Shown one piece after another: positions 6,016 to 21,595 of a DNA stretch of 59,275 bases. The first letter of the stretch is position 1, and each line of letters opens with the position of its first letter. The translations under genes were made by a program, and so were the position numbers. Below the pieces are notes generated by a model. It saw nothing but the letters and a program-made list of their open reading frames with translations, was not told the origin of the DNA and ran no database searches. This DNA is from an uncultured Candidatus Saccharibacteria bacterium (lineage in GTDB: Bacteria > Patescibacteriota > Saccharimonadia > CAILAD01 > GCA-016700035): the NCBI GenBank assembly GCA_964646575.1, contig CAZYFT010000004.1:1-59275 (forward strand), read 5' to 3'.

Positions 6016-8628
6016 ATGGCTATTAATTTAAAAACATTCTTTGGTGATCCGAACGCGCGTGAAATTAAGAAGGCGCGTTCTCGTGTGGAGCGTATCAACT
6101 CATTGGAAGCTGAAATCCAGAAGCTGTCCGATAAAGAGCTTCGCGCTCAAACCGATACGTTTCGCAAGCAGCTCAAAGACGGCAAGAAGCTCGATGATAT
6201 TTTAGAGCGAGCCTATGCTGTGGCGCGCGAGGCCAGCAAGCGCGTTATTGGGCAGCGACACTTCGATGTTCAGCTCATCGGCGGCATCGTATTACACGAA
6301 GGTAAGATTGCCGAAATGAAAACCGGTGAAGGTAAGACATTGGTTGCCACCCTGCCACTCTACCTGAATGCCCTCGAGGGCGAAGGCGCACACCTCGTTA
6401 CGGTAAATGATTATTTGGCTCGCATCGGTGCTGGCTGGATGGGCCAAATCTACCATTTTCTTGGTCTTACTACGGCGGTCATTATGCACGATTCAAGTTT
6501 TGTGTACGACCCAGAATACACCGATGAAGCGCACTCGGATGAGCGTCTCCGTCATTTGCGTCCTGTGACTCGTAAGGAGGCTTATGCGGCGGATATTACC
6601 TACGCTACTAATAACGAGCTAGGCTTTGATTATTTACGTGACAATATGGTGCAACACCTCGATCAGATGACGCAGCGCGGATTGCATTTTGCGATTGTGG
6701 ACGAAGTTGACTCAATTTTAATCGACGAAGCTCGCACGCCTCTGATCATTTCTCAGGCTAATGCGAAATCCACCGACCGCTACTACATGTTTGCTAAGAT
6801 CGCGAAGACTCTCGTTCGTGACGAACACTATTCTCTCGACGAAAAGCAGCGAGCAGTAAGTCTTACAGATGAGGGAATTGCCAAAATCGAAAAAGCTCTA
6901 GGTGTTGATAATGTGTATGAAGCTGGTCGTATTGAAGACGTTCATCACATTGAATCCGCCCTAAAAGCCGAAGCTATCTTTCAGAAAGACAAAGATTATG
7001 TTGTTACGCCAGATGGTGAAATTGTTATTGTTGATGAGTTCACCGGTCGTTTACTCCCCGGACGTCGTTATAGCGAAGGGCTGCATCAGGCCATTGAAGC
7101 TAAAGAGGGTGTAACTATCCAGCAGGAGAGCCAAACGCTGGCAACAATTTCATTCCAGAATCTTTTCCGTCTGTATGGCAAACTAGCCGGTATGACGGGT
7201 ACGGCGGCAACTGAAGCCGAAGAATTTGGCAAAATCTATAAGCTCGAAGTAACAACGATCCCTACTCATAGACCGATGGTACGCCAGGATTTGCCGGATA
7301 GAATCTACAAAACGCTGCCGGCTAAGTTTGGTGCTGTAGCTGACGAGGTGAAAGAGCGCCACGAGAAGGGTCAGCCAGTTCTTTTGGGTACTGTCTCGAT
7401 CGAAAAGAACGAACTGCTCAGCCGTATGCTCACCAAAGTTGGCGTTCCACACCGAGTATTGAATGCCAAAAATAACGAAGCCGAAGCAGAGATTGTGTCT
7501 GCCGCTGGTCAGCGCGGCGCAGTAACACTTGCCACCAATATTGCGGGTCGTGGTACGGATATTGTGCTGGGTGAAGGTGTTAATGAGCTGGGTGGTTTAC
7601 ATGTAATTGGTACCGAGCGACATGAATCACGACGCATTGATAACCAGTTGCGCGGTCGTGCTGGTCGTCAGGGCGATGCTGGTTCAAGCCAGTTTTATGT
7701 GTCACTTGAGGACGATTTGATGCGTATTTTTGGGAGCGACAAGCTTTCTTCGATGATGGATGCGCTGGGGCTTCCTGAGGATACGCCAATTGAGAATCGC
7801 ATGGTCTCCCGCTCGCTAGAATCGGCTCAGAAAAAGGTGGAAGGTCACAACTTTGATACCCGTAAGCACTTGGTTGATTACGATGATGTGATGAACCAGC
7901 ATCGCGAGATAATCTATGCGCGCCGGCGCCGGGTTTTAAAGCAAGATTCTCTCAAGGAAGACTTACTGCCGATTTTTGAGTCCGAGTTTCATGCGCTTAT
8001 TGAGGCGCATACTGATACGCAGACAGAAATTTTAGATATTGAGAAGTTAGCCGAGGCCGTTCGAGATATTATTCCTTTACCAAAAGACTGGGAAAAGTCT
8101 GTCGAGCGTCGAGATAAAGAGGCTTTGGTCGAAGAATTTATGAAAATTACCAAAGATATGTATCGCTCTCGTGAAATGGAGTTTGGCGATGAAGGTGTTA
8201 TGGTGATTGAGCGTCTCGTCAGTCTCAAAACGATTGATACGGCCTGGCTTGAGCATTTAGAGGCGATGGATCATTTGCGCGATGGTATTGGTTTGCGTGG
8301 TTACGGACAGCGCGATCCGCTCGTAGAATATAAAGCTGAAGCATATCGTATGTTCGGCATGTTAACTCATCGGATCGATTCTGAGATTGTTCACACGCTC
8401 TTCAAGGTGCGCGTGGATATTGCGAATAAGCCTGAAGACGAAGCGATTGAAACAGAAATCACCCAGGCGGCAAAAAAAGCGGTTACCTCGGGGCCGACTG
8501 AGTCCGTTCAGCCCACAAAGCAAAAAGCCTTGAAGGAATCTGAACGTTCTGGTAGAGAATCCGGCCCCATCCGCCGAACTGCTTCAACTCCAAAGAAAAA
8601 GTCAAAAAAGAAGAAGAAGCGTCGCTAA
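6016..8628 (+). CDS. secA: Preprotein translocase ATPase SecA
   Basis: 870 aa with Walker A MKTGEGKTLVATLP, DEVD box VDEVDSILIDEARTPLIIS, TNIAGRGTDI, and a Lys-rich C-terminal tail. An AGGAAGG ribosome-binding site sits upstream. Confidence 0.97.
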   Translation: MAINLKTFFGDPNAREIKKARSRVERINSLEAEIQKLSDKELRAQTDTFRKQLKDGKKLDDILERAYAVAREASKRVIGQRHFDVQLIGGIVLHEGKIAEMKTGEGKTLVATLPLYLNALEGEGAHLVTVNDYLARIGAGWMGQIYHFLGLTTAVIMHDSSFVYDPEYTDEAHSDERLRHLRPVTRKEAYAADITYATNNELGFDYLRDNMVQHLDQMTQRGLHFAIVDEVDSILIDEARTPLIISQANAKSTDRYYMFAKIAKTLVRDEHYSLDEKQRAVSLTDEGIAKIEKALGVDNVYEAGRIEDVHHIESALKAEAIFQKDKDYVVTPDGEIVIVDEFTGRLLPGRRYSEGLHQAIEAKEGVTIQQESQTLATISFQNLFRLYGKLAGMTGTAATEAEEFGKIYKLEVTTIPTHRPMVRQDLPDRIYKTLPAKFGAVADEVKERHEKGQPVLLGTVSIEKNELLSRMLTKVGVPHRVLNAKNNEAEAEIVSAAGQRGAVTLATNIAGRGTDIVLGEGVNELGGLHVIGTERHESRRIDNQLRGRAGRQGDAGSSQFYVSLEDDLMRIFGSDKLSSMMDALGLPEDTPIENRMVSRSLESAQKKVEGHNFDTRKHLVDYDDVMNQHREIIYARRRRVLKQDSLKEDLLPIFESEFHALIEAHTDTQTEILDIEKLAEAVRDIIPLPKDWEKSVERRDKEALVEEFMKITKDMYRSREMEFGDEGVMVIERLVSLKTIDTAWLEHLEAMDHLRDGIGLRGYGQRDPLVEYKAEAYRMFGMLTHRIDSEIVHTLFKVRVDIANKPEDEAIETEITQAAKKAVTSGPTESVQPTKQKALKESERSGRESGPIRRTASTPKKKSKKKKKRR

Positions 8629-8632
8629 TCTC

Positions 8633-8661
8633 AAAAAAGTCCCCCACCCAAGGGCTTTTTT
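8633..8661 (+). terminator. Intrinsic terminator after secA
   Basis: AAAAAAGTCC pairs with GGGCTTTTTT (one G-U pair) around a 9-nt loop, directly after the secA stop. Confidence 0.55.
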
Positions 8662-8669
8662 GTTATCAT
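8661..8669 (+). promoter_or_regulatory. Extended -10 box (TGtTATCAT) 7 nt upstream of ATG 8677; probable leaderless start
   Basis: TG at 8661-8662, TATCAT at 8664-8669, ATG at 8677, no SD. Confidence 0.35.
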
Positions 8670-8676
8670 AAGAGCA

Positions 8677-11600
8677 ATGGGCGATAAATCACATGATGTT
8701 ATGCATGGCTTTGACGAGTTAGATCCAAGCCGGTTTGGTGGCTCTGAATTTCGAGGGGTTGAATTGGCCAGCGAGTTATCGCAGGCGCACACCGATGACG
8801 TCGAAGTAGAACCAACTCCTAAAGATTCGCGTAGAGCGCCCACCTTTGGAGATGTGGCAGCTCAATTACCAGTAGTAGAGCGAGAAATTGCTCAAGCCGA
8901 GAGTAGATTAGCCGCGTTAGGCGAATCTGGTGATGCTGAGGAGTTGGGAAGAGTCTCGAGCTATCTTGCATCCTTGCAGGGTGAGCGCACCGAAATTCAG
9001 CAAGCTATGGAGAAACTCACGATTAAGCTTGATAATCCTGTGCTGATTGAAGACGCGCCACAAGCCAATCACACGGAGCTCTCAAAAGCGAATGATCCTT
9101 ACAGATACTTTGACCGACCCTTGGGTGATATTAAGAGAGAGCTACGTAAAATTCGAGGCTGGGATGGAGTACGGGCTCGGATTAATCGTCGACATGGTGA
9201 TTCATTAGGTGGCGATAAGGAGCCGGCTGAGATTTTACTTGATAATCTCGCACATGAAGTGAAAGCTGGTATGCGTCCAGTAACAAAAGCAATTTGGTCA
9301 GAATTTTATGATCGCTACAATCCGGATGGAAGCATGAAGAATACATCGAGCGACAAACCTAAAAAGCCATCTACTGATAAGCAACAGCCCCAGGGGAATG
9401 CACGTCAAAGAAAGCAAGTAAAGCAAGCTGAAGATTCACGGCGCATTCGTGAAGCGCGATATTTTGATAGTAATGATTATGATAAGGACGATGAGCATGA
9501 GCTGCGTCTTCCTCCAGATGAATGGGTACGAAAAAATCGGCAAAATGACTTGCCAGACGAGAACCAAACCGGTTATGATGACGAGGATAAACGAAACAGG
9601 AGTGGTGCAATGCCAGCACAGCCAGAGCGGATAAGTGATGAAGATGTTAACCAAAAGTTTGGTAGCGAACTTGGCGACGATTTAAAGCAAATACTTGCTG
9701 AGAATGATACGGAAGCGTTTTATGGCGCTCCAGCGAGTCCGTTGAGTGCTGAAAGTAGCGGCGGTCAGTCTCAACCCATTCCAACAGAGTCATCACGTCC
9801 TGTTCAAACAAATTTTGACAGGGCCACTCCGTCGAATCCTGCTCAATCTGGAGAAGCCCAGCTTCAACCCATGACGCGCGTTGAGCGACAAGAGTCGATC
9901 GAGAACGATTATCAGTTTGAAATTGGTGGCGTTACCTTCAAAAATGGCGAAATGGTCACTTATACAGAAGCGGATGGCGATAAAGCTCCACACATGATTA
10001 TTCAAAAAGTTGGTGAGAATCCGGCTCGATTGCGTTTATTGAATCTAGAAAGCGGCACTGAGTTTGCAATTGATGAAGATAGTATTTCGCGTATCGAAAA
10101 ACTTCAAGATGGCGAAGGCGGAGGGGGTACTCCAGAGGACGATGATGACCCGATTGATCGAGAAGGGGGCGAGCCGTTTGAAAAGGGCAGCTACCTAGAT
10201 GGAGTGCCAAAAATACCGTCAGCTGAAGAGATCTTGGCATTAGCTGAAGGTGCGCGCTTAAATGTTGATGCTCAAATACAAGCTGTGGCGCAAGCAAAAG
10301 AGCAGCGGGAAAAGTTCTTTGGGCGCACGAAGCGTGATCAGACTGCACTAGAGCAGGCAAATCAGGGTCTTGAGTCGGCATATTCTCAATACATGGATAA
10401 TTGGGCGGCAGTTTTAGCTGACTATCGTGAGGTTGAAACCGATATCAATGAATATAAGGCTGACATGCAAGAGAAGATTACCGTACTTGACGAGTCGATT
10501 GCTCGCCTTGAGGCAGATACGCAATTGCCGCCGGCACTCCGTCAGTCTCGGATTGATCGACGCAAGGAGCGCATTTTAGAGGCTCGCGAGGCTATCCAGA
10601 AATGTGATGAGCAATTAGAGAACTTGCGGCAGGGCGTTGAAGAAGTGACTCGTCGCGTTGAGGTTGAGATGATTATTGAGATGGCTCAGACTCGCTCGAA
10701 AATTGAAGCGGCGCAGTGTGCACTAAAGGTAGGTACAAGATCTGAAAAGTTCCGTACTTTCTGGCGATCTAAAAATGGTCGACGTGCCCGTTTGGCAGTT
10801 GGTGCGGCTCTTGGTATAGCTGGCGCTGCAATTGCTATGACTGGCGTTGGTGCTGGTGTGGGTAGTGCGATGGTGGCGGGTGCTGGTGCGGTCATGCGTG
10901 GCACAGGTGGATTTATGGCCACTGAGGCCGGGTGGAATACGCTACACACTAGACGCGCTAATAAGAATGATTTACAGGGTCGTACTGAAGCGTGGGGAGC
11001 TCAGTCAGCAAGTACACAGATCGAGGCAGGGCGAGATATGGAGTATATCTCTACTAACTCAGAGGGGCTTGGGGCTGAAAACATGACGGAGCAAGAGATC
11101 GCAGCGTTTCTAGAGGCCAATGCTGGTGCCCTGTATAGCGATCGAGTGTTGCGAGGCGCGTTAGCTGGTAACTCGGAGGCTTCTGCAACCGCTGCAAGTT
11201 TACTTTTAAAGGCACAGCTTGACCGAGTTAATAGCGATGCAAGATCTAATCGCCACGCAAAGCGAGCTGGCGCCGTTGTTGGAGTAGCAGCTGCAGCTGC
11301 ACCTTTCGTTCTGAGACACTTCTTGAGCGGGCCACCTGAAAAGCCGCCCGTGGCAGAACCGAGCCCGCCAGTGCCACCAACAGAGGCAGTTAATCTCGAT
11401 GAATATCAGTGGTATGGTTTGGCTAGTCGTGATCCGCAACATGCTGCTGAGAACTTTACTCGTATGATAGCTAATGCTACACAAGAACAGATTGCTCGTG
11501 GCGATGCATTAAATGCCGTAATTCGTGGGGCTCGCGATTCCTTGGCGCACACTATGACCACTTCTCAGCAGCAGGAGTTTGCAAGTATTATTGGTTTGGC

Positions 11601-11724
11601 TGCAACTGAGAAGCCTGGTGAAGAAATTCTGCGCGTGTTGCCTGCTATTGCTCGAAACGTAACGAGCGGTATGTCCCCAGATCAGATCTATAATCTTTAC
11701 GGTATTACGCCACCGGCAGTATAA
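8677..11724 (+). CDS. Large (1015 aa) hypothetical protein: acidic/disordered N-half, long coiled coils, a glycine-zipper membrane segment and a Pro-rich linker
   Basis: Long uninterrupted ORF. It has coiled-coil-like heptad stretches (~10.2-10.7 kb) and a Gly/Ala-rich hydrophobic block (GAALGIAGAAIAMTGVGAGVGSAMVAGAGAVM). No catalytic motif was recognised. Confidence 0.75.
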   Translation: MGDKSHDVMHGFDELDPSRFGGSEFRGVELASELSQAHTDDVEVEPTPKDSRRAPTFGDVAAQLPVVEREIAQAESRLAALGESGDAEELGRVSSYLASLQGERTEIQQAMEKLTIKLDNPVLIEDAPQANHTELSKANDPYRYFDRPLGDIKRELRKIRGWDGVRARINRRHGDSLGGDKEPAEILLDNLAHEVKAGMRPVTKAIWSEFYDRYNPDGSMKNTSSDKPKKPSTDKQQPQGNARQRKQVKQAEDSRRIREARYFDSNDYDKDDEHELRLPPDEWVRKNRQNDLPDENQTGYDDEDKRNRSGAMPAQPERISDEDVNQKFGSELGDDLKQILAENDTEAFYGAPASPLSAESSGGQSQPIPTESSRPVQTNFDRATPSNPAQSGEAQLQPMTRVERQESIENDYQFEIGGVTFKNGEMVTYTEADGDKAPHMIIQKVGENPARLRLLNLESGTEFAIDEDSISRIEKLQDGEGGGGTPEDDDDPIDREGGEPFEKGSYLDGVPKIPSAEEILALAEGARLNVDAQIQAVAQAKEQREKFFGRTKRDQTALEQANQGLESAYSQYMDNWAAVLADYREVETDINEYKADMQEKITVLDESIARLEADTQLPPALRQSRIDRRKERILEAREAIQKCDEQLENLRQGVEEVTRRVEVEMIIEMAQTRSKIEAAQCALKVGTRSEKFRTFWRSKNGRRARLAVGAALGIAGAAIAMTGVGAGVGSAMVAGAGAVMRGTGGFMATEAGWNTLHTRRANKNDLQGRTEAWGAQSASTQIEAGRDMEYISTNSEGLGAENMTEQEIAAFLEANAGALYSDRVLRGALAGNSEASATAASLLLKAQLDRVNSDARSNRHAKRAGAVVGVAAAAAPFVLRHFLSGPPEKPPVAEPSPPVPPTEAVNLDEYQWYGLASRDPQHAAENFTRMIANATQEQIARGDALNAVIRGARDSLAHTMTTSQQQEFASIIGLAATEKPGEEILRVLPAIARNVTSGMSPDQIYNLYGITPPAV

Positions 11725-11741
11725 GTAATAAGGAGTACGAT

Positions 11742-12080
11742 ATGAATCCAAATCAACCCAATCAACCAGATATTTTCACCAGACTCGGTATGGCTTCGGC
11801 TAGTGATGAGCAAAAACAGCAGCTCGCCGAGCAGCTCGCTGACCTCACGATGACTCGCGTGCTCAGCAAAGTTTCAGATCAGATTACTGAAGAACAGATG
11901 AATGAACTTGAACGGCTGATCGATACTGGTGGAGATCAGGTTGATGATCGACTGCGGCAGCTCGTACCGAACTATGATGAGTTGATTGCGTCTACCGCTC
12001 AGGAAGTTGGGGATCAGCTTGTTGCTGATCAACAGGCTGTACTTGCTAAAATGCGCGAAAAAGCCGCTCAGCAACACTAA
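11742..12080 (+). CDS. Small acidic helical hypothetical protein (112 aa)
   Basis: ORF 17 nt after the previous stop, preceded by AAGGAG. The sequence is rich in E/D/Q with helical repeats. No family was confidently recognised. Confidence 0.7.
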   Translation: MNPNQPNQPDIFTRLGMASASDEQKQQLAEQLADLTMTRVLSKVSDQITEEQMNELERLIDTGGDQVDDRLRQLVPNYDELIASTAQEVGDQLVADQQAVLAKMREKAAQQH

Positions 12081-12101
12081 GAATAATCAATAAAAACATT
12101 G

Positions 12102-12132
12102 ACCATACTATATATTTATGGTATGGTTTTTG
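12102..12132 (+). terminator. AT-rich hairpin plus T-run after the 112-aa gene (overlaps a possible TTGACC-N17-TATGGT promoter)
   Basis: ACCATAC (12102-12108) pairs with GTATGGT (12121-12127) around a 12-nt loop, followed by TTTTT. Confidence 0.5.
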
Positions 12133-12178
12133 TGTTATTCGCACCTGACAATTTGTCCCGAGAAAAATGAGGCACAGC

Positions 12179-13753
12179 ATGCGTGACGACAAGCCCGGAA
12201 TGAGCTTGGACGAATTCGCCGAGCTCGACCCAGAAGAAGTTGCCGCCCAGTGTGGTGGCGCAACCCCGGCCGAAGATGGCCCCAACCCCGGCATTGCCGG
12301 AGAACAGGAGGCCGTCATGGCCGATACCGAAGAGACCACCGATCCCGCTCCGTCCGAGGAGCCTGCCGGGCGCAGAGGTGCACAGCGCGCCTCAGATCTC
12401 CTCCCGATCTTGCGCCAGGCCGATCCGTCACTGGATGACGCATCGGCTCTCGAGCTGCTTCAGGAGATCTTGAACGAAGACCGTGATGCAGGCAAGCTGC
12501 CGCGTGTCATCAAGAGCTCCTCGGAGTACGTTCCGGCCGCGCTCGAGCCGAAGGTTCGAGCGTTCGTTGCCGCGAACGGCACCGACGATTCAGGCGCAGA
12601 CAATCCGGCCCAGCCGGCTGTCGCTGATGGCACTGACTCGCCGCCCTTCGATCAGGACGCTCCTGGTGCTTCGGCGCCCGATGGCGATCCGGTCGACAGC
12701 GGCGAGACGCCTCCAGCTTCGGAGCCCGAAGCCACTTCGGTGGAGTCGGCGGTCGAAGCGAGCGGTGAGAGTCGGCTTGACTCCTACCGCCAGGCTTTGC
12801 GACCGTTGCTCGAAGCATCTGTCGCAGCTCGCGAAAACGGCACGCGCGACGAAGCAGATGCTGCCGTCTGGAGGCTCGCTGAGGCCATCTTCGATCAGGG
12901 GTTCACTCTATATCGAGAGCTGAGGCAGTCGGATGAAGAGGCCGAGAAGCGTCTGTTCCAGCTTCGTATCGAAGAAGGGCAGACCGTACCGCTTTCGGTC
13001 ACCAGGGATGAGATCGCAGCCAATCCCGATTTGCGTGAGCAGGTCTGGTACTACCGGACAGCGGTTCGGTCCACCCTGCGAGTCTTTGAAGGCCACGAGA
13101 CCATCCAGGAGCTTCTGGAGGATTTCACCTGGCCCTCGGAGTCTCACTTCCGACGTCAGCAGAGTGCGCGTTCTCGCAACCACTCACGGAGTGCCACGCG
13201 CACAGCGGTTCCGGGGCTTCCACCTCGACCCGCATCCGAGGAGCCGGCGAGCAGCTCGACGGACGACACACCCCCTTCCGAGCCCGTGACGGGTGTCGCA
13301 AACACCGGTGCCCCGAAGGAGCTCGAGGGCCCTCCCACTCAGGAGGTTCCCGTTGTTCGGACGAGTGAGGGGCGTCGTACGGTCAGCAGCAGTGATGCTC
13401 CCGAGCCGGAGCGCCATGTGGTGCGGGGTGGTGGCCGAGCAGCCATGCGCCCCTCATCGAAGGCACCAGCTGCGGCGCGTCAATCCAGCGATCCGGTCGA
13501 AGAGCCGGACGCTCAGCAGCCTCAGGCCGATGGACCAGCCGACAGTGCAGATCGTGATGCGAGTCGCGGTAAGCGGAAGTCGGACGAGTCCTTCTTGGTC
13601 GAACTGCCGGATGAGGTTTTCGAGGCTGCCGTCAAGGCGGTGATCGAGGATCCTGATCCGGAGCAGTGCTGGGCATTCCGCTCGGCAGACGCAGTTCGTG
13701 CTGAGGCGGAGCGGCGCATCCTTGTGGAGTCGGGTCGGCTGAGCGCCGTCTGA
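12179..13753 (+). CDS. High-G+C island gene 1: acidic, Pro/Ala/Ser-rich, largely disordered hypothetical protein (524 aa from ATG 12179)
   Basis: Strong G/C bias at codon position 3 in this frame. GAGG (12169-12172) sits 6 nt before ATG 12179; the track start at 12167 is also possible. No domain was recognised. Confidence 0.7.
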   Translation: MRDDKPGMSLDEFAELDPEEVAAQCGGATPAEDGPNPGIAGEQEAVMADTEETTDPAPSEEPAGRRGAQRASDLLPILRQADPSLDDASALELLQEILNEDRDAGKLPRVIKSSSEYVPAALEPKVRAFVAANGTDDSGADNPAQPAVADGTDSPPFDQDAPGASAPDGDPVDSGETPPASEPEATSVESAVEASGESRLDSYRQALRPLLEASVAARENGTRDEADAAVWRLAEAIFDQGFTLYRELRQSDEEAEKRLFQLRIEEGQTVPLSVTRDEIAANPDLREQVWYYRTAVRSTLRVFEGHETIQELLEDFTWPSESHFRRQQSARSRNHSRSATRTAVPGLPPRPASEEPASSSTDDTPPSEPVTGVANTGAPKELEGPPTQEVPVVRTSEGRRTVSSSDAPEPERHVVRGGGRAAMRPSSKAPAAARQSSDPVEEPDAQQPQADGPADSADRDASRGKRKSDESFLVELPDEVFEAAVKAVIEDPDPEQCWAFRSADAVRAEAERRILVESGRLSAV

Positions 13754-13762
13754 TTTCACTTC

Positions 13763-13799
13763 GGGCGATCTGGGTAACTCCAGGTCGCCCTATTTTTTT
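13763..13799 (+). terminator. GC-rich intrinsic terminator of island gene 1
   Basis: GGGCGAtCTGG (13763-13773) pairs with CCAGgTCGCCC (13780-13790) with one mismatch, followed by TATTTTTTT. Confidence 0.75.
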
Positions 13800-13843
13800 G
13801 TTAACTTTCTTTGGCATAAGCATATTGACTTTACAAAAAACTA

Positions 13844-13872
13844 TTGCAAAATTATGCATTTTATGCTATTAT
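13844..13872 (+). promoter_or_regulatory. Sigma-70 promoter TTGCAA-N17-TATTAT in a ~25% G+C spacer, driving island gene 2
   Basis: -35 TTGCAA at 13844-13849 and -10 TATTAT at 13867-13872, preceded by an A-rich UP-like stretch. It is followed by a ~60-nt GC-rich leader with a GGGAGGGG SD before ATG 13939. Confidence 0.6.
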
Positions 13873-13938
13873 GCAACGGTATTCGTACCTCAACCCGGGT
13901 GTTGAAAAACCCCGGCACAACACACCCCGGGAGGGGAC

Positions 13939-14676
13939 ATGGCAAACCGAACCCAACGAACCGCACACGCGGAGGTGCTGCTCGCGCAGCGTCACCGTGC
14001 CGAGCACGACGACATCACTCGCCGCCTCGGCGAGGCGGAGGGCAAGCTGCAGCGTCTCGACGCTGCCGTCCAGGACCGTGAGGCCCAGCTCGATGCCGCC
14101 ACCAGCGAGTGGCTCAAGGGCATCGTGCGCGAAGAGCTCGCGGAGCTCAATCGCGAACGTGAAGACGTCAGGGGCCAGGTCTCCGGCTTCCGGCAGGAAC
14201 TCCAGCAGTTCGGCGAGCGGCTCGGAACCGTCGAGAACAACGTTCTTGGCCTCGGCAGTCGCATCGAAGGGCTGCAGGTCCACTCGGAGGCCCACGCCAC
14301 CGCGATCTCGCGGCTGGAGGCGGCCAACGGCTGGATCCCGCTCATCGGTGGGGTCATCACCGCGCTCGTCGTCTACTTCTTCATCGAAGGAGTGGAGTGG
14401 GTGCGAGGTGATCGCTTCACCACACAGAACCAGTGGTTCTGGGCAGTGCTCATCGGTGCCATCGTCGGCATCGTGCTGACCTGTCTGCCCGGTAACGGGC
14501 GCAGCATCATCACGCGTTCCACCGCCTCGGCGGGCGGAAACGTGGTGGTGGCACCGCAGCCTCCGGCAGATCAGCCGGCACCAGCTGCGGGCGTCACGCC
14601 TCCGCCACCCCCTCCTGCCGGGAGCCAGTTCTCGACTGTGCAGGCTGCAGCCGTAGCCAGTGCGTCGACGAACTGA
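13939..14676 (+). CDS. High-G+C island gene 2: coiled-coil protein with two TM helices and a poly-proline tail (245 aa)
   Basis: Almost every codon ends in G/C. It has N-terminal heptad-like repeats, TM segments WIPLIGGVITALVVYFFI and FWAVLIGAIVGIVLTCL, and a C-terminal PPPPPPAG. No domain was recognised. Confidence 0.8.
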   Translation: MANRTQRTAHAEVLLAQRHRAEHDDITRRLGEAEGKLQRLDAAVQDREAQLDAATSEWLKGIVREELAELNREREDVRGQVSGFRQELQQFGERLGTVENNVLGLGSRIEGLQVHSEAHATAISRLEAANGWIPLIGGVITALVVYFFIEGVEWVRGDRFTTQNQWFWAVLIGAIVGIVLTCLPGNGRSIITRSTASAGGNVVVAPQPPADQPAPAAGVTPPPPPPAGSQFSTVQAAAVASASTN

Positions 14677-14683
14677 CCCCGCG

Positions 14684-14728
14684 CTTCCTGGGGTCTTCGG
14701 ACCCCAGGAAGACACACTTTTGGTTTTA
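14684..14728 (+). terminator. Perfect 12-bp GC-rich hairpin terminator of island gene 2
   Basis: CTTCCTGGGGTC (14684-14695), loop TTCG, GACCCCAGGAAG (14700-14711), then ACACACTTTTGGTTTTA. Confidence 0.75.
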
Positions 14729-14844
14729 TTCTGGCCTTGAACGTGAACCTCTTGTAAAACAGAGATGAACGCTTGAAGTCAGAACCAGAACCTGAACATC
14801 CATCAAGAGTCGCATTCGCGACACCGACCACAAGGAGGTGCGCG

Positions 14845-15888
14845 ATGAGCGCTCCCAACTCTGCCCAGCAGAGGTTCTTCTTCAGCATCATCGGCGCTGC
14901 TGCGCTGTTGTTGTTGCTCTTCCCGGTCATCAAGGTGATCGCCGGCCCGCCCGACGCGGGTGCCGACGACGACCCGCCTGCGACCACGGCTCCAGCCGGC
15001 ACGTGCGGCGTGAACCAGGTGTTCTTCGCTCGTGAGACGGAGGGCAACCAGTTCGGCCCGGCCGCTCCGGAGGACCCCGCCAACGTGGCGGCAACGCAGG
15101 CGGACTTCGCCTCGCGGCGCTGCTCTGATGCGGCACTCCTCACAGGCGACTCTGAGTACCTCTTCAACGAGTTCTCGGACCCCGCCACCCGCGTGCAGAA
15201 GACCGTCGACCTCATGTCGAACCCGGACGCCTGGGCCCTCACCGAGATGCGCTTCCAGGCGCGCCTCAACGAGGCTACCAAGGTGGAGATCGTCGAGATG
15301 AGCGGCGCGTACCAGACCATGGACATGGAGGACAAGGGGAGGATCATCCCCGAGGTCTACCAGGTTCCGGTCGAAGCCGCGCCGTTCAAGGTGATCCGCT
15401 TCACGTTCCCGGACGGGACCGTGAAGCAGTTCAAGCTCAATTGCGGGTACCAGCCCGTGGAGCAGAACTTCCCGCCTTCGGTTCCCGGCAAGGGCGCTCC
15501 GCCTGCGCCAAACCAGCCCTCGCGGCCGGTGACGCCAGGCAAGCCCGGACGGCCGACCACGCCCGTGACAACGCCCGAGGCTCCCACTACCACTTGGAAG
15601 TGCCAGCAGGCAGTCGCGAACGGCCAGACGTGCGGTTCGGGTGGCAACAACCATCCTTCCCACGTGGACACCGAGCCGCTTCCGCCCACTCTGGACTACG
15701 TTCCGGGGAACGCTGAGGACTCGGCGGCGGATCCGGCTGACGGGGTGATCATCCCGCCGGGCGGCAACATGAGCCCGGGCGACACCAACGGGACGACCGG
15801 TGGCAACACCGGCTTCGACAACCCGGAACCGACCGAGGCCACGCCTCAGCCGGTCAACGAGCCCGGAGACCCTGGGGCGCCGGCCTAG
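14845..15888 (+). CDS. High-G+C island gene 3: membrane-anchored or secreted protein with a Cys-containing central domain and a Pro/Thr/Gly-rich tail (347 aa)
   Basis: AAGGAGG (14832-14838) lies 6 nt before ATG 14845. The N-terminus is QQRFFFSIIGAAALLLLLFPVIKVIAG (anchor/signal) and the tail is PSRPVTPGKPGRPTTPVTTPEAPTTT. The track ORF start at 14773 (TTG) lacks an SD. Confidence 0.75.
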   Translation: MSAPNSAQQRFFFSIIGAAALLLLLFPVIKVIAGPPDAGADDDPPATTAPAGTCGVNQVFFARETEGNQFGPAAPEDPANVAATQADFASRRCSDAALLTGDSEYLFNEFSDPATRVQKTVDLMSNPDAWALTEMRFQARLNEATKVEIVEMSGAYQTMDMEDKGRIIPEVYQVPVEAAPFKVIRFTFPDGTVKQFKLNCGYQPVEQNFPPSVPGKGAPPAPNQPSRPVTPGKPGRPTTPVTTPEAPTTTWKCQQAVANGQTCGSGGNNHPSHVDTEPLPPTLDYVPGNAEDSAADPADGVIIPPGGNMSPGDTNGTTGGNTGFDNPEPTEATPQPVNEPGDPGAPA

Positions 15889-15921
15889 CCGGTAGTTCCC
15901 AAAGGGTGTTCAGGTTCATCA

Positions 15922-15960
15922 GGGGCGGACGTGCAAGCGTCCGCCCCTTCAACTTTTATT
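15922..15960 (+). terminator. GC-rich intrinsic terminator of island gene 3 (right edge of the island)
   Basis: GGGGCGGACG (15922-15931), loop TGCAAG, CGTCCGCCCC (15938-15947), then TTCAACTTTTATT. Confidence 0.7.
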
Positions 15961-16004
15961 GAGTCAAATCTGTTGAAACCAGCATATTTAGCTGACAAAA
16001 ACTA

Positions 16005-16033
16005 TTGACAAAAAAGCTTAAGTATGATAATAT
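16005..16033 (+). promoter_or_regulatory. Consensus-like sigma-70 promoter TTGACA-N17-TAATAT upstream of the LPXTG gene
   Basis: -35 TTGACA at 16005-16010 and -10 TAATAT at 16028-16033. The upstream A-rich module resembles the one at 13818-13851. Confidence 0.65.
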
Positions 16034-16181
16034 TTACAGGTAATTGTTCACCTTTGCGGACAATAAACCTTTACAACTACAGGAAAAATACTGCAATTAT
16101 TACAGAGATTGACCACACGCATAAATGTTAAATAACCATAAGCGCTTTCCGACATTACGTCGCGAAAGAAAGGAGTCTCAT

Positions 16182-17372
16182 ATGATGACTGTGCTTTCTA
16201 AGTTGCGCTATGTAGCCTTCGCTGCATTGCTCAGCCTTCTGCCATTGGCAGCTCACGCCACGAGCCAGGTGCGCCTTGAATCAAAACTTGGTGTTGCTAA
16301 CGCGAGTGCCGGTGAGAATACGTACAAGCCAAGTACCAGTGCAAAAACCGACGAAACCGTTCAAGTTCAGCTTTGGTACCACAACATGGAAAATGCCGAT
16401 AGCGGCAAAGTAGCCAATAATGTAAAAGCAAAACTTCAGTTGCCAACCGCAGCTGGAAAAACCCAGAAAATCAACGGTACAATCTCTGCAGACAATGCCA
16501 ACACGGTAAACTCAAGCGCAAATGTAAACCTTGCACTTGATAACAGCCGTCTCGAGTATGTTCCAGGAACTGCAGTTTGGCGCCACAACAAGGGCACCAA
16601 CGAGCAGCCTAACTGGGTAACTGACACACTTACCGCAGCTCAGGAGCAACAGCTTTTGACTACGGGTGTAGTACTCGAAAATGGTAAGCCATGCTTCAAC
16701 TTCGAAGCTAGCGTATCTGTAAAATTGCGTGTTAAGACCGATATGGTTTCTATAACCAAACAAGTTCGTGTTCTTGGTGAAAAAGAATGGAAGAGTGAAA
16801 ACACTGCAAAAGCTGGTGACACACTTGAATACCTCATCACCTTTAAGAACGAAGGAAATACTGTTTTGAAGGATCTTGCAATTGCTGACAACATGCCAGC
16901 TTCTGTAACCTACGTAAACGGTACTACTCAACTTAAAAACATGAACAACCCGAACGGCATTAAGATTACCTCTGATAAAGTCACAAGTGGCGGAATCAAT
17001 GTAGGTAGTTATGCCCCAGGTTCTGTTGGTTATGTATGGTTCCAAGCGAAGATTGATCCTAATCTTAAGCCTGGCTCATATACCATGAAGAACGTTGCTG
17101 GCGTAAAAGCTGGTAACATCATGCGTGAAAACTATGCAGTCACTAAGGTTACAGTTGCAGGTAAGCCCACGCCTACCCCAACCACACCTCCTGTATCTCC
17201 AACTCCAACTCCTACCACTCCGGTAACTCCTGAGCAGCCAACCCTGCCTCAGACTGGTATCGAAACTGGTGTTGCTGGTCTGTTGGGAACCGGTGGTCTC
17301 ACCTACGCTGGTTATTTCTACCGAAAGAGCCGCAAAGGTTTGAGCGCTGCGTTGAAAAACGTTGTAAAGTAA
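16182..17372 (+). CDS. Sortase-anchored (LPXTG-type) cell-surface protein with repeated beta-rich domains
   Basis: AAAGGAG SD before ATG 16182 and signal peptide MMTVLSKLRYVAFAALLSLLPLAAHA. The C-terminal sorting signal is LPQTG (nt 17244-17258), a hydrophobic stretch and a basic tail (RKSRKG), with a PT-rich stalk before it. Confidence 0.85.
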   Translation: MMTVLSKLRYVAFAALLSLLPLAAHATSQVRLESKLGVANASAGENTYKPSTSAKTDETVQVQLWYHNMENADSGKVANNVKAKLQLPTAAGKTQKINGTISADNANTVNSSANVNLALDNSRLEYVPGTAVWRHNKGTNEQPNWVTDTLTAAQEQQLLTTGVVLENGKPCFNFEASVSVKLRVKTDMVSITKQVRVLGEKEWKSENTAKAGDTLEYLITFKNEGNTVLKDLAIADNMPASVTYVNGTTQLKNMNNPNGIKITSDKVTSGGINVGSYAPGSVGYVWFQAKIDPNLKPGSYTMKNVAGVKAGNIMRENYAVTKVTVAGKPTPTPTTPPVSPTPTPTTPVTPEQPTLPQTGIETGVAGLLGTGGLTYAGYFYRKSRKGLSAALKNVVK

Positions 17373-17462
17373 CATCCTGCAGTTTGTAGGTATACGCCAA
17401 GCTCCCTCGAAGTGAAATTTTCACTGACGGGGAGTTTTGGTTTATATGGTGCTAGAAACAGG

Positions 17463-17468
17463 TATAAT
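17463..17468 (+). promoter_or_regulatory. -10 box TATAAT 9 nt upstream of the prfB ATG (very short or no leader)
   Basis: TATAAT at 17463-17468, ATG at 17478, no SD in between. Confidence 0.4.
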
Positions 17469-17477
17469 ACTACCGAT

Positions 17478-18572
17478 ATGAAACCAATTATTGATCGACT
17501 CACTAAGCTGTTAGATGAAGTGCAAGGTGCAATTCATCAGCTTAATCTAGAAAGTGAAGAAAAGGTGCTTGCTGAGCTCGAAGCTCGCATGAATGCGCCT
17601 GATTTTTGGTCTGATCAAGGCGAAGCTCAAAAGGTCAGTCAAGAAGCTGCTCTGCTACGCAAGTTTATCGAGAGCTGGCAAACGATGGAAGAGTCGATTA
17701 AGACAATGCTCGAGCTCGCAGAAATGTCGGATGAGTCCTTATTAGATGCCATGGAGGAGTCTACGGCAAGCATCGAAGAGTCAGTACGCCAGATGATGAT
17801 TACCGTAAAGCTGGCGGGTGATTATGATAAAAACACGGCAATTGTGCAAATTTCGGCTGGTGCTGGCGGCACCGATGCTCAAGATTGGGCGGAAATGCTC
17901 CTAACTATGTACACCAAAGCCGCAGAAAAACTTGAGTTAACTGCTAAATTGATTGATATTTCTCGCGGCGAGGAAGCTGGCATAAAATCTGCCACGCTGG
18001 AAATTGAAGGTCCGTTTGCCTTTGGAAAGCTGAAAAGCGAAAAGGGTGTCCATCGTTTAGTGAGGCTTTCACCTTTTAATAGCGATAGCTTGCGCCAAAC
18101 CAGTTTTGCGCTGGTTGATGTAATTCCGGAAATTCCGATGGAGCAGATAGAGCTCGATGAAAAAGACTTACGCATTGATGTGTTTCGAGCTGGTGGGCAT
18201 GGTGGCCAGAGCGTAAATACCACCGATTCGGCGGTGCGCATCACTCACATTCCAACCGGCATTGTGGTTTCAATTCAAAATGAACGTTCGCAGCTCAAGA
18301 ATAAAAATAAAGCCCTGTCGATTTTGGCGGCAAAGCTTGCTGAATTGGCGCGTGAGCAGCATTTAGATTCTGTGGCCGAGTTGCGTGGGAAAGTCCAGTC
18401 AGCCGACTGGGGTCAGCAAATTCGTAGCTATGTATTGCATCCGTACAAAAAAGTAAAAGATCATCGCACAGATTATGAAACTAGCGACACAGATGCGGTT
18501 CTGGGTGGTGAAATCGAGCCATTTATCGAAGCCTATTTGACTCAGAACCTATCTGATGAACAGAAAAATTAG
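17478..18572 (+). CDS. prfB: Peptide chain release factor 2, encoded in a single frame
   Basis: SPF tripeptide (RLSPFNS) and GGQ motif (GGHGGQSVNTTDSAVRITHIPTG). The ORF is continuous from ATG 17478, with no internal in-frame TGA or +1 shift site. Confidence 0.93.
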   Translation: MKPIIDRLTKLLDEVQGAIHQLNLESEEKVLAELEARMNAPDFWSDQGEAQKVSQEAALLRKFIESWQTMEESIKTMLELAEMSDESLLDAMEESTASIEESVRQMMITVKLAGDYDKNTAIVQISAGAGGTDAQDWAEMLLTMYTKAAEKLELTAKLIDISRGEEAGIKSATLEIEGPFAFGKLKSEKGVHRLVRLSPFNSDSLRQTSFALVDVIPEIPMEQIELDEKDLRIDVFRAGGHGGQSVNTTDSAVRITHIPTGIVVSIQNERSQLKNKNKALSILAAKLAELAREQHLDSVAELRGKVQSADWGQQIRSYVLHPYKKVKDHRTDYETSDTDAVLGGEIEPFIEAYLTQNLSDEQKN

Positions 18573-19822
18573 TTAATGCGCTGTAGTTGGGCGCCGAGAG
18601 CCTGCAGGCGCTCCTCAATACGTTCATAGCCGCGGTCGATGTGTTCGATGCGGTCAATCGTAGTTTTGCCCTGCGCGATAAGGGCGGCAATGAGTATGGT
18701 GGCGCCCGCGCGGATGTCGAAACTGACCAGATCCGCCCCAGCGAGTGGTGTTGGGCCGGTGATGAGGCCTGTGTGGGTGTCGCGGATGGCTACAGCTGCT
18801 CCCATGCGCTGCAGCTCAAAGAGATATTGCAGACGGCCTTCGTAGAGAGTTTCGAAAATTTCTGAGGTACCAGCACACTGAGTTAGCAGGACAGCCAAAG
18901 GGGCCTGCAAGTCACTCGGGAAGTTTGGGTATGGCTGGGTGCGTACATTGACGGCCTGGTAGTCGCCGCCGGGCAGAATATGGATTGTTTTGGAGTTTGG
19001 CAGTTGATATTGTACGCCGATTTGATCGAATAGCGTGAGAAGTACGTCGTGTTCATCACGAATAAAATCATGAATAATTACATCGCCGCGCGAGGCTGCC
19101 GCCGCAATCGCAATGGTGCCGCTCTCTAGCTGGTCGGGCGGTACTCGAAAAAGTGTACCATTGAGTATTTCGACGCCATGAATGGTGAGGTTGTGGGTGC
19201 CAACGCCCTCGATTTTAGCGCCCATTTGTTGCAACATCAGGCAGAGGTCAACTACATGAGGCTCGAGTGCTACCATCCTCAGTTCGGTTGTGCCGGTAGC
19301 AAGGACGGCCGCCATAATTGCGTTTTCGGCACCAGTTACGGTTAGCTCACCGAGTACCACGCGTCCGCCCTGGGGTTTGCCGGATACAGTAATGTGGCCT
19401 TGCTCGCGAATAACTGATAGCCCCATCGCCTGAAAAGCTTTGAGGTGTGATGCAAGTGGGCGAGCGCCAATGATGTCGCCGCCAGGTTGAGCTGCCGTGA
19501 TACTACCAAGTCGGCCAACTGCCGCTCCCAAAATAAGCACCGAAGCGCGCATTTTTGCTGTGAGCTCGTCGGGAATTGTAGCGGTAGTTAGATTGCCTGC
19601 CTCAACCGTAACAGTATGGCCTTCGCGCCAGATTTTCGCCCCAAGTGAGGCCAAGATTTCTAGCATTACGTCAACGTCTGAAATGCGCGGCACATTTTCG
19701 AGCGTTACTTTTTCTTTAGTTAAGAGGCAAGCAGCCAGCATTGGTAGCACGGCGTTTTTAGAGCCAGCAGTGAACCATTCGCCTTGCAGGCGGGTTGGGC
19801 CAGTAATTACAAGCTTTGTCAT
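18569..19822 (-). CDS. murA: UDP-N-acetylglucosamine 1-carboxyvinyltransferase MurA (active-site Asp variant)
   Basis: 417 aa from ATG at 19822: MTKLVITGPTRLQGEWFTAGSKNAVLPMLAA. The active-site loop is QPGGDIIGARP, where E. coli has PGGCAIGARP. The track ORF extends spuriously to 20029. Confidence 0.93.
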   Translation of the reverse strand: MTKLVITGPTRLQGEWFTAGSKNAVLPMLAACLLTKEKVTLENVPRISDVDVMLEILASLGAKIWREGHTVTVEAGNLTTATIPDELTAKMRASVLILGAAVGRLGSITAAQPGGDIIGARPLASHLKAFQAMGLSVIREQGHITVSGKPQGGRVVLGELTVTGAENAIMAAVLATGTTELRMVALEPHVVDLCLMLQQMGAKIEGVGTHNLTIHGVEILNGTLFRVPPDQLESGTIAIAAAASRGDVIIHDFIRDEHDVLLTLFDQIGVQYQLPNSKTIHILPGGDYQAVNVRTQPYPNFPSDLQAPLAVLLTQCAGTSEIFETLYEGRLQYLFELQRMGAAVAIRDTHTGLITGPTPLAGADLVSFDIRAGATILIAALIAQGKTTIDRIEHIDRGYERIEERLQALGAQLQRIN

Positions 19823-19889
19823 ACTGCTTATTGTAGCAGGCTTTATTTGCACCATGCAGTCGTGCACAAGCTCAAGCGCATATGCTAAA

Positions 19890-20582
19890 ATGAATGCATA
19901 CGTGATTTTACTTGATCGAGTTTCAGTGATGTATCCAAATAAGACGGTCGCTTTGTCGGGCGTCAGTTTGCATATACAGCCAAAAGAGTTTGTAACAGTG
20001 GTGGGTTCATCTGGTGCTGGTAAGTCCACACTTATTCGTCTTCTTATTAAAGAGGAGGTTCCGACGAGCGGAAAAATTATTGTTGGATCGATTGACTACG
20101 ACACGATTGGTAAAACCAGTATTCCTCACTTGCGTCGCCGTATCGGCGTGGTTTTTCAGGATTTTAAGCTGCTGCCTAATCTTACAGTGTATGAGAATGT
20201 AGCTTTTGCGCTCGAAGCCAGCGGGGTTCGCACCTCAGAAATTAAGCGCGCGGTGCCAAAAATTTTGCAGTTGGTTGGTTTGGCAGAAAAGGCCAATAAC
20301 TATCCTAAAGAAATCTCTGGCGGCGAAAAACAGCGCGTGGCCATTGCGCGGGCCTTGGTGCGAAATCCAAAAATTCTGATTGCCGATGAGCCGACCGGTA
20401 ACTTAGACCCGAAAAATTCATGGGACATTATTGAGCTGCTTTTGAAGATTAACAAGTTTGGTACAACTGTGCTTCTGACCACCCACAATAAAGAAATTGT
20501 GAATGCTCTGAAGCGTCGTGTAATTACGATTCAGAATGGGCGTATTTTGAAAGACGAAAAAGTAGGACGTTACGTTCTATAA
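19890..20582 (+). CDS. ftsE: Cell-division ABC ATPase FtsE
   Basis: Walker A GSSGAGKST, signature ISGGEKQRVAIARAL and Walker B ILIADEPTGNLD. The start is ATG 19890 (GTG 19902 also possible). The first 131 codons of the track ORF are antisense to murA. Confidence 0.92.
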   Translation: MNAYVILLDRVSVMYPNKTVALSGVSLHIQPKEFVTVVGSSGAGKSTLIRLLIKEEVPTSGKIIVGSIDYDTIGKTSIPHLRRRIGVVFQDFKLLPNLTVYENVAFALEASGVRTSEIKRAVPKILQLVGLAEKANNYPKEISGGEKQRVAIARALVRNPKILIADEPTGNLDPKNSWDIIELLLKINKFGTTVLLTTHNKEIVNALKRRVITIQNGRILKDEKVGRYVL

Positions 20583-20610
20583 CGGATTGGATTAGGAGGG
20601 TAAGACGATA

Positions 20611-21522
20611 ATGATTACGCTGTGGCGCATGTTTAAGACTGGTTTTCGGAACTTGTTCCGGAACGCATGGCTTTCGATAGCAGCTACCGCAATTATGGTA
20701 GTCACCTTGGTGATTGTAGCGTTCTTTGCCTTCTCTGCACTCTTCTTGCAGAACCAGTTGGCGGCAGTTCGAGAGAAAATTGACCTCACGGTCTTCTTAA
20801 AAGATGAAGCTACGCCAGACCAGGTAAAGCAGCTGCAGGCTAACATTCAGACGTTTGATAACGTAGCCGAGGTGCGCTACGTATCTAAGACTGATGCCTT
20901 GGAGCGATTGCGTACTAGCTCAAAAGATGGTGAGCAGCTTGCCAAGACCGCTACAGAGATCGGCAATCCATTACCGGCATCACTAGAGGTGCGCACTGAA
21001 ACGCTTGAGAACCTTGATTCACTCAACAGTCAGATTAAGGATGATAGTGGGGCGATAATTGTAGCGAGTACGAGTAATGATGACAGTGACGTTCGGCGTA
21101 AAGTTGTTGATCGCATTGTGTCGATTTCTAGCGGTGTTTCAAAGGTGGGTACGGTGATTTCTGTCGCCTTCCTCTTAATTAGCTTGATGATTATCTTTAA
21201 TACTATCCGCATGGCAATCTTTACGCGCCGTGAGGAAATCGAGATTATGAAGCTGGTTGGAGCTACTAACTGGTATATTCGTGGCCCGTTTCTTATTGAA
21301 GGTGCGATGTATGGCATTATTGGCGCGACAATTGCTATGGCAATTACCTTACCTTTGATAAATGTGGCCCGGCCGCTCTTTACGAGTTATTTCAACGCCA
21401 GCGATGTTGTGACTTTTGTGACTGATCGTATTTTTTTGGTGACGCTTGCGATGTATACTTTGGGAATTGTCATTGGCACACTTTCGAGCTTTCTTGCGAT
21501 CTCTCGTCATTTGAAGCTTTAG
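20611..21522 (+). CDS. ftsX: Cell-division permease-like protein FtsX
   Basis: 303 aa with an AGGAGGG SD. It has TM1, a large extracytoplasmic loop and three C-terminal TMs, and lies immediately downstream of ftsE. Confidence 0.88.
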   Translation: MITLWRMFKTGFRNLFRNAWLSIAATAIMVVTLVIVAFFAFSALFLQNQLAAVREKIDLTVFLKDEATPDQVKQLQANIQTFDNVAEVRYVSKTDALERLRTSSKDGEQLAKTATEIGNPLPASLEVRTETLENLDSLNSQIKDDSGAIIVASTSNDDSDVRRKVVDRIVSISSGVSKVGTVISVAFLLISLMIIFNTIRMAIFTRREEIEIMKLVGATNWYIRGPFLIEGAMYGIIGATIAMAITLPLINVARPLFTSYFNASDVVTFVTDRIFLVTLAMYTLGIVIGTLSSFLAISRHLKL

Positions 21523-21595
21523 CATATTCTGTGATAGACTAACGGTAATGCTTACTGCTTCAAAATACAGATGGGGGTAGAAGCAAAAAAGGAGG

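Follow-up and report, generated by a model that had tools for sequence, protein, structure and literature searches.

The AT-rich spacer between the first two genes of a GC-rich cluster in an uncultured Candidatus Saccharibacteria genome (positions 13754–13938) is probably the native control region of gene 2, within an old, Saccharibacteria-specific envelope cluster. Its likeness to the promoter of a neighbouring LPXTG surface-protein gene would come from a shared strong-promoter pattern and not from a captured copy. Comparisons among related genomes demonstrate the conservation of this region, covariation in its hairpins, the generic nature of its core motif, and the age of the cluster. In the arrangement that we propose, a GC-rich hairpin followed by a T run would terminate gene 1, an A/T-rich upstream element would precede the gene 2 promoter, and a housekeeping (sigma-70-type) promoter (TTGCAA, 17 nt, TG-n-TATTAT) would drive gene 2. 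The transcript would begin with a leader of ~60 nt, in which a small stem-loop is followed by a strong ribosome-binding site. The spacer would be AT-rich because of the needs of promoter recognition and of the terminator U-run, and the flanking coding sequences would be held at high GC3 by a separate, long-lasting force. The likeness to the LPXTG promoter would follow from both being near-consensus strong promoters, with an A tract, (C/G)TATTGACAAA, and a TG-extended -10 box.

The GC-rich cluster and its neighbours

The window (the whole stretch of DNA analysed, 59,275 nt) is contig C4 of a 763 kb genome in 47 contigs, with 47–49% G+C. Over ~12150–15900 its G+C climbs to 63–66%, and the list of open reading frames (ORFs) places three same-strand ORFs inside this region. 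Gene 1 (12167–13753, + strand; GC 0.64, GC3 0.67) encodes an acidic protein of 528 aa that is probably disordered, judging from its sequence, and has syntenic orthologues. Gene 2 (13939–14676, + strand; GC3 0.785), with mosaic alleles among species, encodes 245 aa with a predicted coiled coil, two membrane helices, and a Pro-rich tail. The product of gene 3 (14845–15888, + strand; 347 aa, GC3 0.86) has an N-terminal membrane helix, an alpha/beta domain, and a Pro/Thr-rich tail. The cluster genes have a G+C of 0.64–0.67, and their GC3 values (0.67, 0.785, and 0.86) compare with 0.40–0.53 in the neighbouring genes and with a genome mean of 0.475 (sd 0.08), so that both the composition and the codon usage of the cluster are atypical.

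Native genes lie on both sides: secA, the gene of a 1015-aa coiled-coil protein, and a DUF5663 gene 5′ of the cluster, and an LPXTG/DUF11 surface-protein gene (16182–17372, + strand; native GC3 of 0.43), prfB, murA, and ftsEX 3′ of it. The surface-protein gene was assigned by a Pfam DUF11 match (1.4e-6) and a weak match to the LPXTG anchor; NCBIfam was searched as well. Genes 1–3 matched no Pfam or NCBIfam family, and an AlphaFold model of the gene 3 product (mean pLDDT 59.5) had no fold match in the PDB. Their position beside secA, a sortase substrate, and ftsEX–CHAP genes suggests that all three encode envelope proteins.

Parts of the gene 1–gene 2 spacer

The low G+C content noted for this spacer in the initial annotation is borne out, with 15 of 60 nt at 13801–13860 and 25% over 13791–13878, against 63–66% in the flanking coding sequence. 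The predicted intrinsic terminator of gene 1 (13763–13799, + strand) consists of a 12-bp GC-rich hairpin (13763–13790) and a T run, and its pairing is kept in relatives. The upstream promoter region of gene 2 (13814–13843, + strand) reads GGCATAAGCATATTGAC, followed by the A tract ACAAAAAACTA, and resembles an UP element. Within GGCATAAGCATATTGAC lies a -35-like TTGACT (13825–13830), 19 nt upstream of TTGCAA.

The near-consensus promoter TTGCAA-N17-TATTAT that had been proposed was recovered by the promoter scan at 13844–13872 (+ strand), with 9 of 12 matches. Its -35 box (TTGCAA, 13844–13849) agrees with TTGACA at four of six positions, a 17-nt spacer separates it from the -10 box (TATTAT, 13867–13872), and TG precedes the latter at 13864–13865. 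This site combines the hexamer likeness and spacing of a sigma-70-type promoter with orthologous conservation. The scanned region holds 11 promoter-like sites, versus 1.7 expected from shuffled sequences. From the position of the -10 box, transcription would start near 13879, resulting in a predicted 5′ leader of 60 nt (13879–13938, + strand) with a stem-loop at 13895–13915 and the Shine-Dalgarno sequence GGGAGGGG at 13929–13936. Both the activity of the promoter and the role of the leader are putative, being read from the sequence.

Conservation of terminator, promoter, and leader

The source genome (G000) was compared with three congeners (G002, G005, and G004, the last being a one-contig genome of 916 kb) and with G010, which belongs to another genus. 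Identity to G002, G005, G004, and G010, respectively, is 69, 85, 72, and 30% at the end of gene 1; 88, 85, 75, and 60% over the gene 1 terminator; 99, 92, 85, and 65% over the promoter (13800–13878); 98, 100, 80, and 37% over the leader (13879–13938); and 55, 90, 56, and 5% at the start of gene 2. Taken together, promoter and leader have identities of 99%, 96%, and 83% in the three congeners, versus 55–90% in the adjoining coding sequence, and when identity is binned by 100 nt, conservation peaks locally at the spacer in all four genome comparisons. Among eight orthologous spacers, most positions are invariant from the T run through GGCATAAGCATATTGAC, AAAACTATTGCAAAAT, and TGCTAT; TTGCA and TGCTAT are invariant, and the -35, TG, and -10 elements are invariant or nearly so. 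The core promoter is also kept in the other genus.

Both hairpins are preserved by pairing, as counted in five to eight sequences. For the gene 1 terminator, 93% of cells are paired in five genomes, with both-side changes at 4 of 12 pairs, and 91% in eight sequences, with both-side changes at 2–4 of 12 pairs overall. For the leader stem-loop (eight sequences), 83% of cells are paired and two of the nine pairs have changed on both sides, from G-C to A-U in one sequence and from U-A to C-G in three. Such compensatory changes support the earlier suggestion that the GC-rich hairpins of the locus are real terminators.

The folding energy of the leader is ordinary (z=0.06), which rules out an unusually stable fold. 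A long-range pairing of 13894–13902 with 13922–13930 was also considered; it is not kept in G004, and the local hairpin at 13895–13915 is therefore preferred. No Rfam family matched the spacer or leader at E<=5, the sole Rfam match being a chance miRNA match on the gene-3 terminator. Given the mosaic pattern of the locus, recent recombination, and not constraint alone, could partly explain why the leader is nearly identical in three species. Our literature search found no mapped promoters, work on GC3-rich genes, or transcriptome paper for Saccharibacteria.

Likeness to the LPXTG promoter

The promoter of the LPXTG/DUF11 gene (15980–16033, + strand) has AGCATATTTAGCTGACAAAAACTA upstream, a -35 box TTGACA at 16005–16010, and a -10 box TAATAT at 16028–16033. 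As previously described, its boxes form a TTGACA-N17-TAATAT promoter (16005–16033), with 10 of 12 matches and a TG. The two promoters are 2.1 kb apart. The close resemblance reported between their modules is real: an alignment of 13818–13851 with 15980–16014 has 28 of 36 columns identical, and a whole-genome search for AGCATATT plus ACAAAAACTATTG(A/C)CAAAA found only these two places in 763 kb. When anchored on the -10 box, an alignment over 90 nt matches at 61 of 94 columns (about 65%).

How unusual this resemblance is depends on the background. The gene 2–LPXTG pair has a local alignment score of 22.5, with a background mean of 8.7 and sd of 2.0 (27,495 pairs from 235 promoter-like sites), and the LPXTG promoter is the best partner of the gene 2 spacer among 234 promoter-like sites. 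The LPXTG promoter is closer to unrelated promoters, namely C7:1042(-) with 26.0 and C9:4879(-) with 24.5, and is the commonest best partner in the whole set. In a genome-wide nhmmer search, the spacer retrieves the LPXTG promoter only at E=89; the reciprocal search, starting from the LPXTG promoter, does not place the spacer within its best 15 matches.

The 3′ half of the shared stretch is the strong-promoter consensus of the genome and of the class. The consensus of 82 strong promoter-like sites reads aaaA.taTTGACAAa, with which the gene 2 promoter agrees in its A tract and in the 'TA' that precedes its -35 box. Similar cores precede unrelated genes (C7:1052, C9:4889, C14:10533, C20:3592, and C6:28934), AAAA(C/G)TATTGACAAA recurs before cluster and surface-protein genes in many related genomes, and conservation of the LPXTG promoter's -35 to -10 core extends across genera and families.

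Of the shared stretch, the AGCATATT half alone is mildly unusual (p ~0.008), and it is limited to the LPXTG promoter allele of two genomes. Over the 17 nt upstream of the generic core, 11 positions are identical, as is the case in 0.8% of unrelated promoter pairs (empirical p ~0.008). The upstream AGCATATTTAGCTGAC is confined to the LPXTG allele of G000 and, with two changes, of G005; six other genomes have another allele, with AAAAGCATAA(G/C)CAAAACC upstream. The spacer scores 8.5–17 against that other allele, versus 22.5 against G000 and 18.5 against G005. The 11/17 match is compatible with a distal UP-type subsite in both promoters, with a small conversion, or with a shared protein site. 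The initial annotation had asked whether the motif might be a generic promoter feature of the genome: the core is, the upstream 8-mer only partly. It had also proposed promoter duplication or capture, which finds no support on several counts. Each family genome has a single copy of the gene 2 spacer promoter, whose age is about that of the cluster; the shared 3′ half is generic; and the extended likeness is limited to the G000/G005 allele.

Downstream of the LPXTG promoter, the leader of ~150 nt (16034–16181) exists in two unrelated allelic forms. Each opens with its own small hairpin immediately downstream of the predicted start: in G000/G005 this is ATTGTTC...GGACAAT, elsewhere TCACAC-CAG-GTGTGA.

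Age and origin of the cluster

The cluster is old and Saccharibacteria-specific, and not a recent import. Its DNA is 81% identical in G002, 82–83% in G005, and 70% in both G004 and G010. These four genomes have in common the gene order (coiled-coil protein, DUF5663, genes 1–3, surface protein), a prfB-sized ORF after the surface protein, and blocks of 60–70% G+C with AT-rich dips. In four metagenomic relatives, the arrangement matches that of the source genome. A recent island would be expected to be absent or elsewhere in relatives; the locus is alike in four species of two genera and four metagenomic relatives. Across genera and families, its site is constant, between DUF5663 and the LPXTG/prfB/ftsEX genes. 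The argument against mis-assembly made in the initial annotation is upheld, since four other species, one of them with a one-contig genome, have the identical order of genes, again GC-rich and separated by AT-rich spacers. An assembly chimera can likewise be dismissed: native sequence lies on both sides within one contig, and the arrangement is present in the one-contig relative.

Homologues of gene 3 point to the same group. A word-index search returned 18 homologues, of which the named one is from Saccharibacteria. Beside three remote homologues, the surface protein is found in all three, prfB–ftsEX–CHAP hydrolase genes in two, and DUF5663 upstream in one. A profile search returned 250 cluster representatives, and among 301 scanned genomes of the class, 41, from 23 genera, have the family. 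At nearly all fetched loci, the homologue regions have 55–74% G+C, versus 35–50% in their flanks. Three more remote matches lie on contigs of 36–57% G+C with typical small-genome neighbours. Among the homologue contexts sampled, none is actinobacterial, and all come from small genomes of low or intermediate G+C, with neighbouring genes of the Saccharibacteria type. The donor lineage outside the group that a recent island calls for was absent from these sampled contexts.

Synonymous divergence is also that of resident genes. Compared with G004 and G010, the proportion of synonymous third positions that differ is 38–49% for genes 2 and 3 and 54–60% for gene 1; the native DUF5663 and LPXTG genes, at 33–49%, differ about as much as genes 2 and 3. 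Despite this divergence, the GC3 of genes 2 and 3 is 0.77–0.86 in all five genomes. Polarised sites, which could reveal ongoing amelioration, are few, and in gene 3 they give 2 W->S versus 8–9 S->W changes. There are no mobility ORFs at 8000–22000, no flanking insertion or direct repeats, and no tRNA gene in 1–30000. The shared synteny, the retained GC3, and the lack of mobility traces together indicate no recent import of the cluster and no recent capture of its promoters. The initial description of the genes as foreign ORFs is not supported, given the conserved synteny, the class-wide family, the Saccharibacteria-type contexts, and a native-like synonymous divergence with high GC3.

In the genome as a whole, ~5% of genes have a GC3 > 0.62 (up to 0.88), many of them encoding small membrane or secreted proteins (e.g. 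C20:1632-2171, C2:9154-10923, C2:2597-3502, C11:12199-12579, and C36:323-2536). Several of these genes lie directly downstream of near-consensus promoters, so the layout of a GC-rich ORF behind an AT-rich strong promoter is not specific to the cluster. Strong promoters and GC3-rich genes show a weak trend in this direction, in small numbers (14–21% versus 6% of genes).

A recombining locus

Gene 2 of the source genome has ~90% DNA identity to G002, and ~50% DNA and 43% protein identity to G005. The reverse is seen for the LPXTG gene with its promoter and leader and for the gene 3 tail, which are 90–99% identical to G005 and 50–65% to G002. The proteins encoded by gene 2 combine segments of two or three allelic types in a patchwork, and gene 3 occurs with either of two C-terminal forms. 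This mosaic pattern indicates recombination of the locus between species, in which spacers and gene ends form the conserved stretches. A speculative reading, to which we give a low but appreciable probability, is that the highly conserved AT-rich spacers and gene ends serve as homology anchors by which naturally transformable Saccharibacteria swap variable, GC3-rich envelope segments between species, and that frequent recombination here, by GC-biased conversion, keeps GC3 at ~0.8 in a 47% G+C genome. The mosaic structure supports this reading without proving it.

Alternative explanations

The native control region that we favour has to be weighed against three other accounts. The first is that the three ORFs came recently from a high-GC donor and were placed behind captured or duplicated recipient promoters, one of them copied from the LPXTG promoter. 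Such an import would explain the strong compositional contrast, the native-type promoters within the spacers, and the 28 identical columns of 36 between the modules. It is very improbable, and conserved synteny largely refutes it: across genera and families, one and the same locus has the cluster together with its spacers and its elevated G+C. Moreover, the sampled homologues occur only in Saccharibacteria-type contexts, synonymous divergence is native-like without loss of GC3, mobility genes, flanking repeats, and tRNA genes are all absent, and the likeness between the modules is not significant genome-wide (E=89).

The other two accounts concern the promoters themselves. A local conversion in the lineage of the G000/G005 LPXTG allele may have moved ~20–35 nt (AGCATATT...AC AAAAACTATTG) between promoters that are otherwise independent and old. 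That the collinear 34-nt likeness is found only in G000 (22.5) and more weakly in G005 (18.5), with 8.5–17 in other LPXTG orthologues, would fit such an event, as would the upstream 11/17 match (empirical p 0.008) and the location of both sites on the same strand, 2.1 kb apart, in a recombination mosaic. We nevertheless regard it as unlikely. The match is short and imperfect and contains an indel, the diagnostic 8-mer is already different in G005 (GACATATT), the comparison was picked after the sequence was seen, and nhmmer gives E=89. In addition, both upstream sequences fit a distal plus proximal UP-element pattern, so that convergence suffices for the likeness. More doubtful still is a shared operator, a box of the AGCATA/GCATAAGC type on the 5′ side of the -35 hexamer, through which one regulator would co-regulate gene 2 and the surface-protein gene. 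Here, the candidate words are indeed recurrent: GGCATAAG is invariant in all gene-2 promoters, AGCATAA(G/C)CA stands upstream of the -35 box in the other LPXTG allele and AGCATAT in allele A (G000/G005), AGCATA is found 13 times versus 2.6 expected upstream of promoter-like sites (~five-fold), and AGCATAAG 48 times versus ~23 expected genome-wide, mostly between genes. The word is nonetheless present at many unrelated intergenic loci at variable distances to the -35 box. Such a spread fits a specific regulon less well than a feature of promoters in general, or than the reverse complement of TATGCT, a common extended -10. The enrichment of AGCATAAG/AGCATA is partly this reverse complement; that of AGCATA could also mark a regulator site instead of a passive UP element.

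Examples of AGCATAAG are found at C2:4653, C8:12529, C31:2488, and C14:10559, often inside or beside promoter-like sites.

Comparison with known systems

Strong housekeeping (sigma-70/sigma-A) promoters with an UP element and an extended -10 box include Escherichia coli rrnB P1 and the sigma-A promoters of Bacillus subtilis. The gene 2 promoter resembles these in its 17-nt hexamer spacing, a TG one base before the -10 box, and an A/T-rich stretch at about -40 to -60, as well as in its conservation across species and its position directly after a terminator. It differs from them in its -35 box TTGCAA (4/6) and in a second TTGACT 19 nt upstream, and its start and activity are predicted. The lineage consensus adds a 'TA' directly before the -35 box and an 'AAA' after it. 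Small 5′-proximal stem-loops stabilise Gram-positive mRNAs, as in the aprE and ermC leaders of B. subtilis. The gene 2 leader is similar in that its small, conserved GC hairpin falls inside the initial ~40 nt of the predicted transcript, before a strong Shine-Dalgarno sequence. Its stem of 5–9 bp differs in having an ordinary folding energy and covariation at two pairs in eight sequences, and a stabilising role would be putative here.

Compositional genomic islands and their amelioration were reportedly described by Lawrence and Ochman in 1997. The cluster shares with such islands a sharp GC and GC3 contrast to the host and the presence of genes without an assigned function beside surface-protein genes. 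Unlike them, it is syntenic across genera and families, confined to Saccharibacteria, and devoid of mobility genes, repeats, and tRNA, and, contrary to the amelioration model, its GC3 has been kept through near-saturating synonymous change. Near-identical promoter segments that precede unrelated genes, so-called mobile or propagated promoters, are said to have been reported by Matus-Garcia, Nijveen and van Passel in 2012. A similar upstream sequence before two unrelated neighbouring genes is what we see as well; it differs in having ~65% identity over 90 nt, two sites only, an E-value of 89, and a shared part that is the generic consensus.

Implications

The AT-rich spacer is, in our reading, an ordinary and very well conserved promoter–terminator unit, and the 'duplicated module' is largely lineage consensus. 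Saccharibacteria are episymbionts whose hosts are high-GC actinobacteria. For genome annotation, a sharp GC contrast with AT-rich spacers in this group should not be taken for a fresh import from these hosts; the long-kept GC3 of ~0.8 in a native envelope cluster belongs to the coding regions and not to the spacer analysed here. The analysis also provides a usable strong-promoter consensus for a poorly studied group (A tract, (C/G)TATTGACAAA, 17 nt, TG-extended -10), and a defined promoter–leader fragment could serve for expression in the few cultivable relatives.

Other boundaries of the cluster

The initial annotation described native-type promoter modules as interleaved with the cluster genes. 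This applies to two of the three genes: no sigma-70-like promoter was found in the gene 2–gene 3 spacer, which leaves gene 3 without such a module. The intrinsic terminator of gene 2 (14684–14729, + strand) has the arms CTTCCTGGGGTC-TTCG-GACCCCAGGAAG, followed by a T-rich run, and its arms have compensating changes in the five-genome alignment. Between this terminator and the ribosome-binding site of gene 3 lies a 24-nt element, GTCAGAACCAGAACCTGAACATCC (14778–14801), with tandem AGAACC/GAAC repeats. Five genomes from two genera have this element almost unchanged, and a response regulator or another sigma factor may recognise it.

Upstream of gene 1, the promoter and terminator scans place a TG-extended promoter, TTGACC-N17-TATGGT, at 12099–12127 (+ strand), which is conserved in five genomes. 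Its boxes TTGACC and TATGGT sit in opposite arms of the DUF5663 terminator hairpin (12099–12128), and the same bases serve as DUF5663 terminator and as gene 1 promoter. In G010, both hairpin arms are altered together (CTTTACC/GGTAAAG), with the promoter boxes retained.
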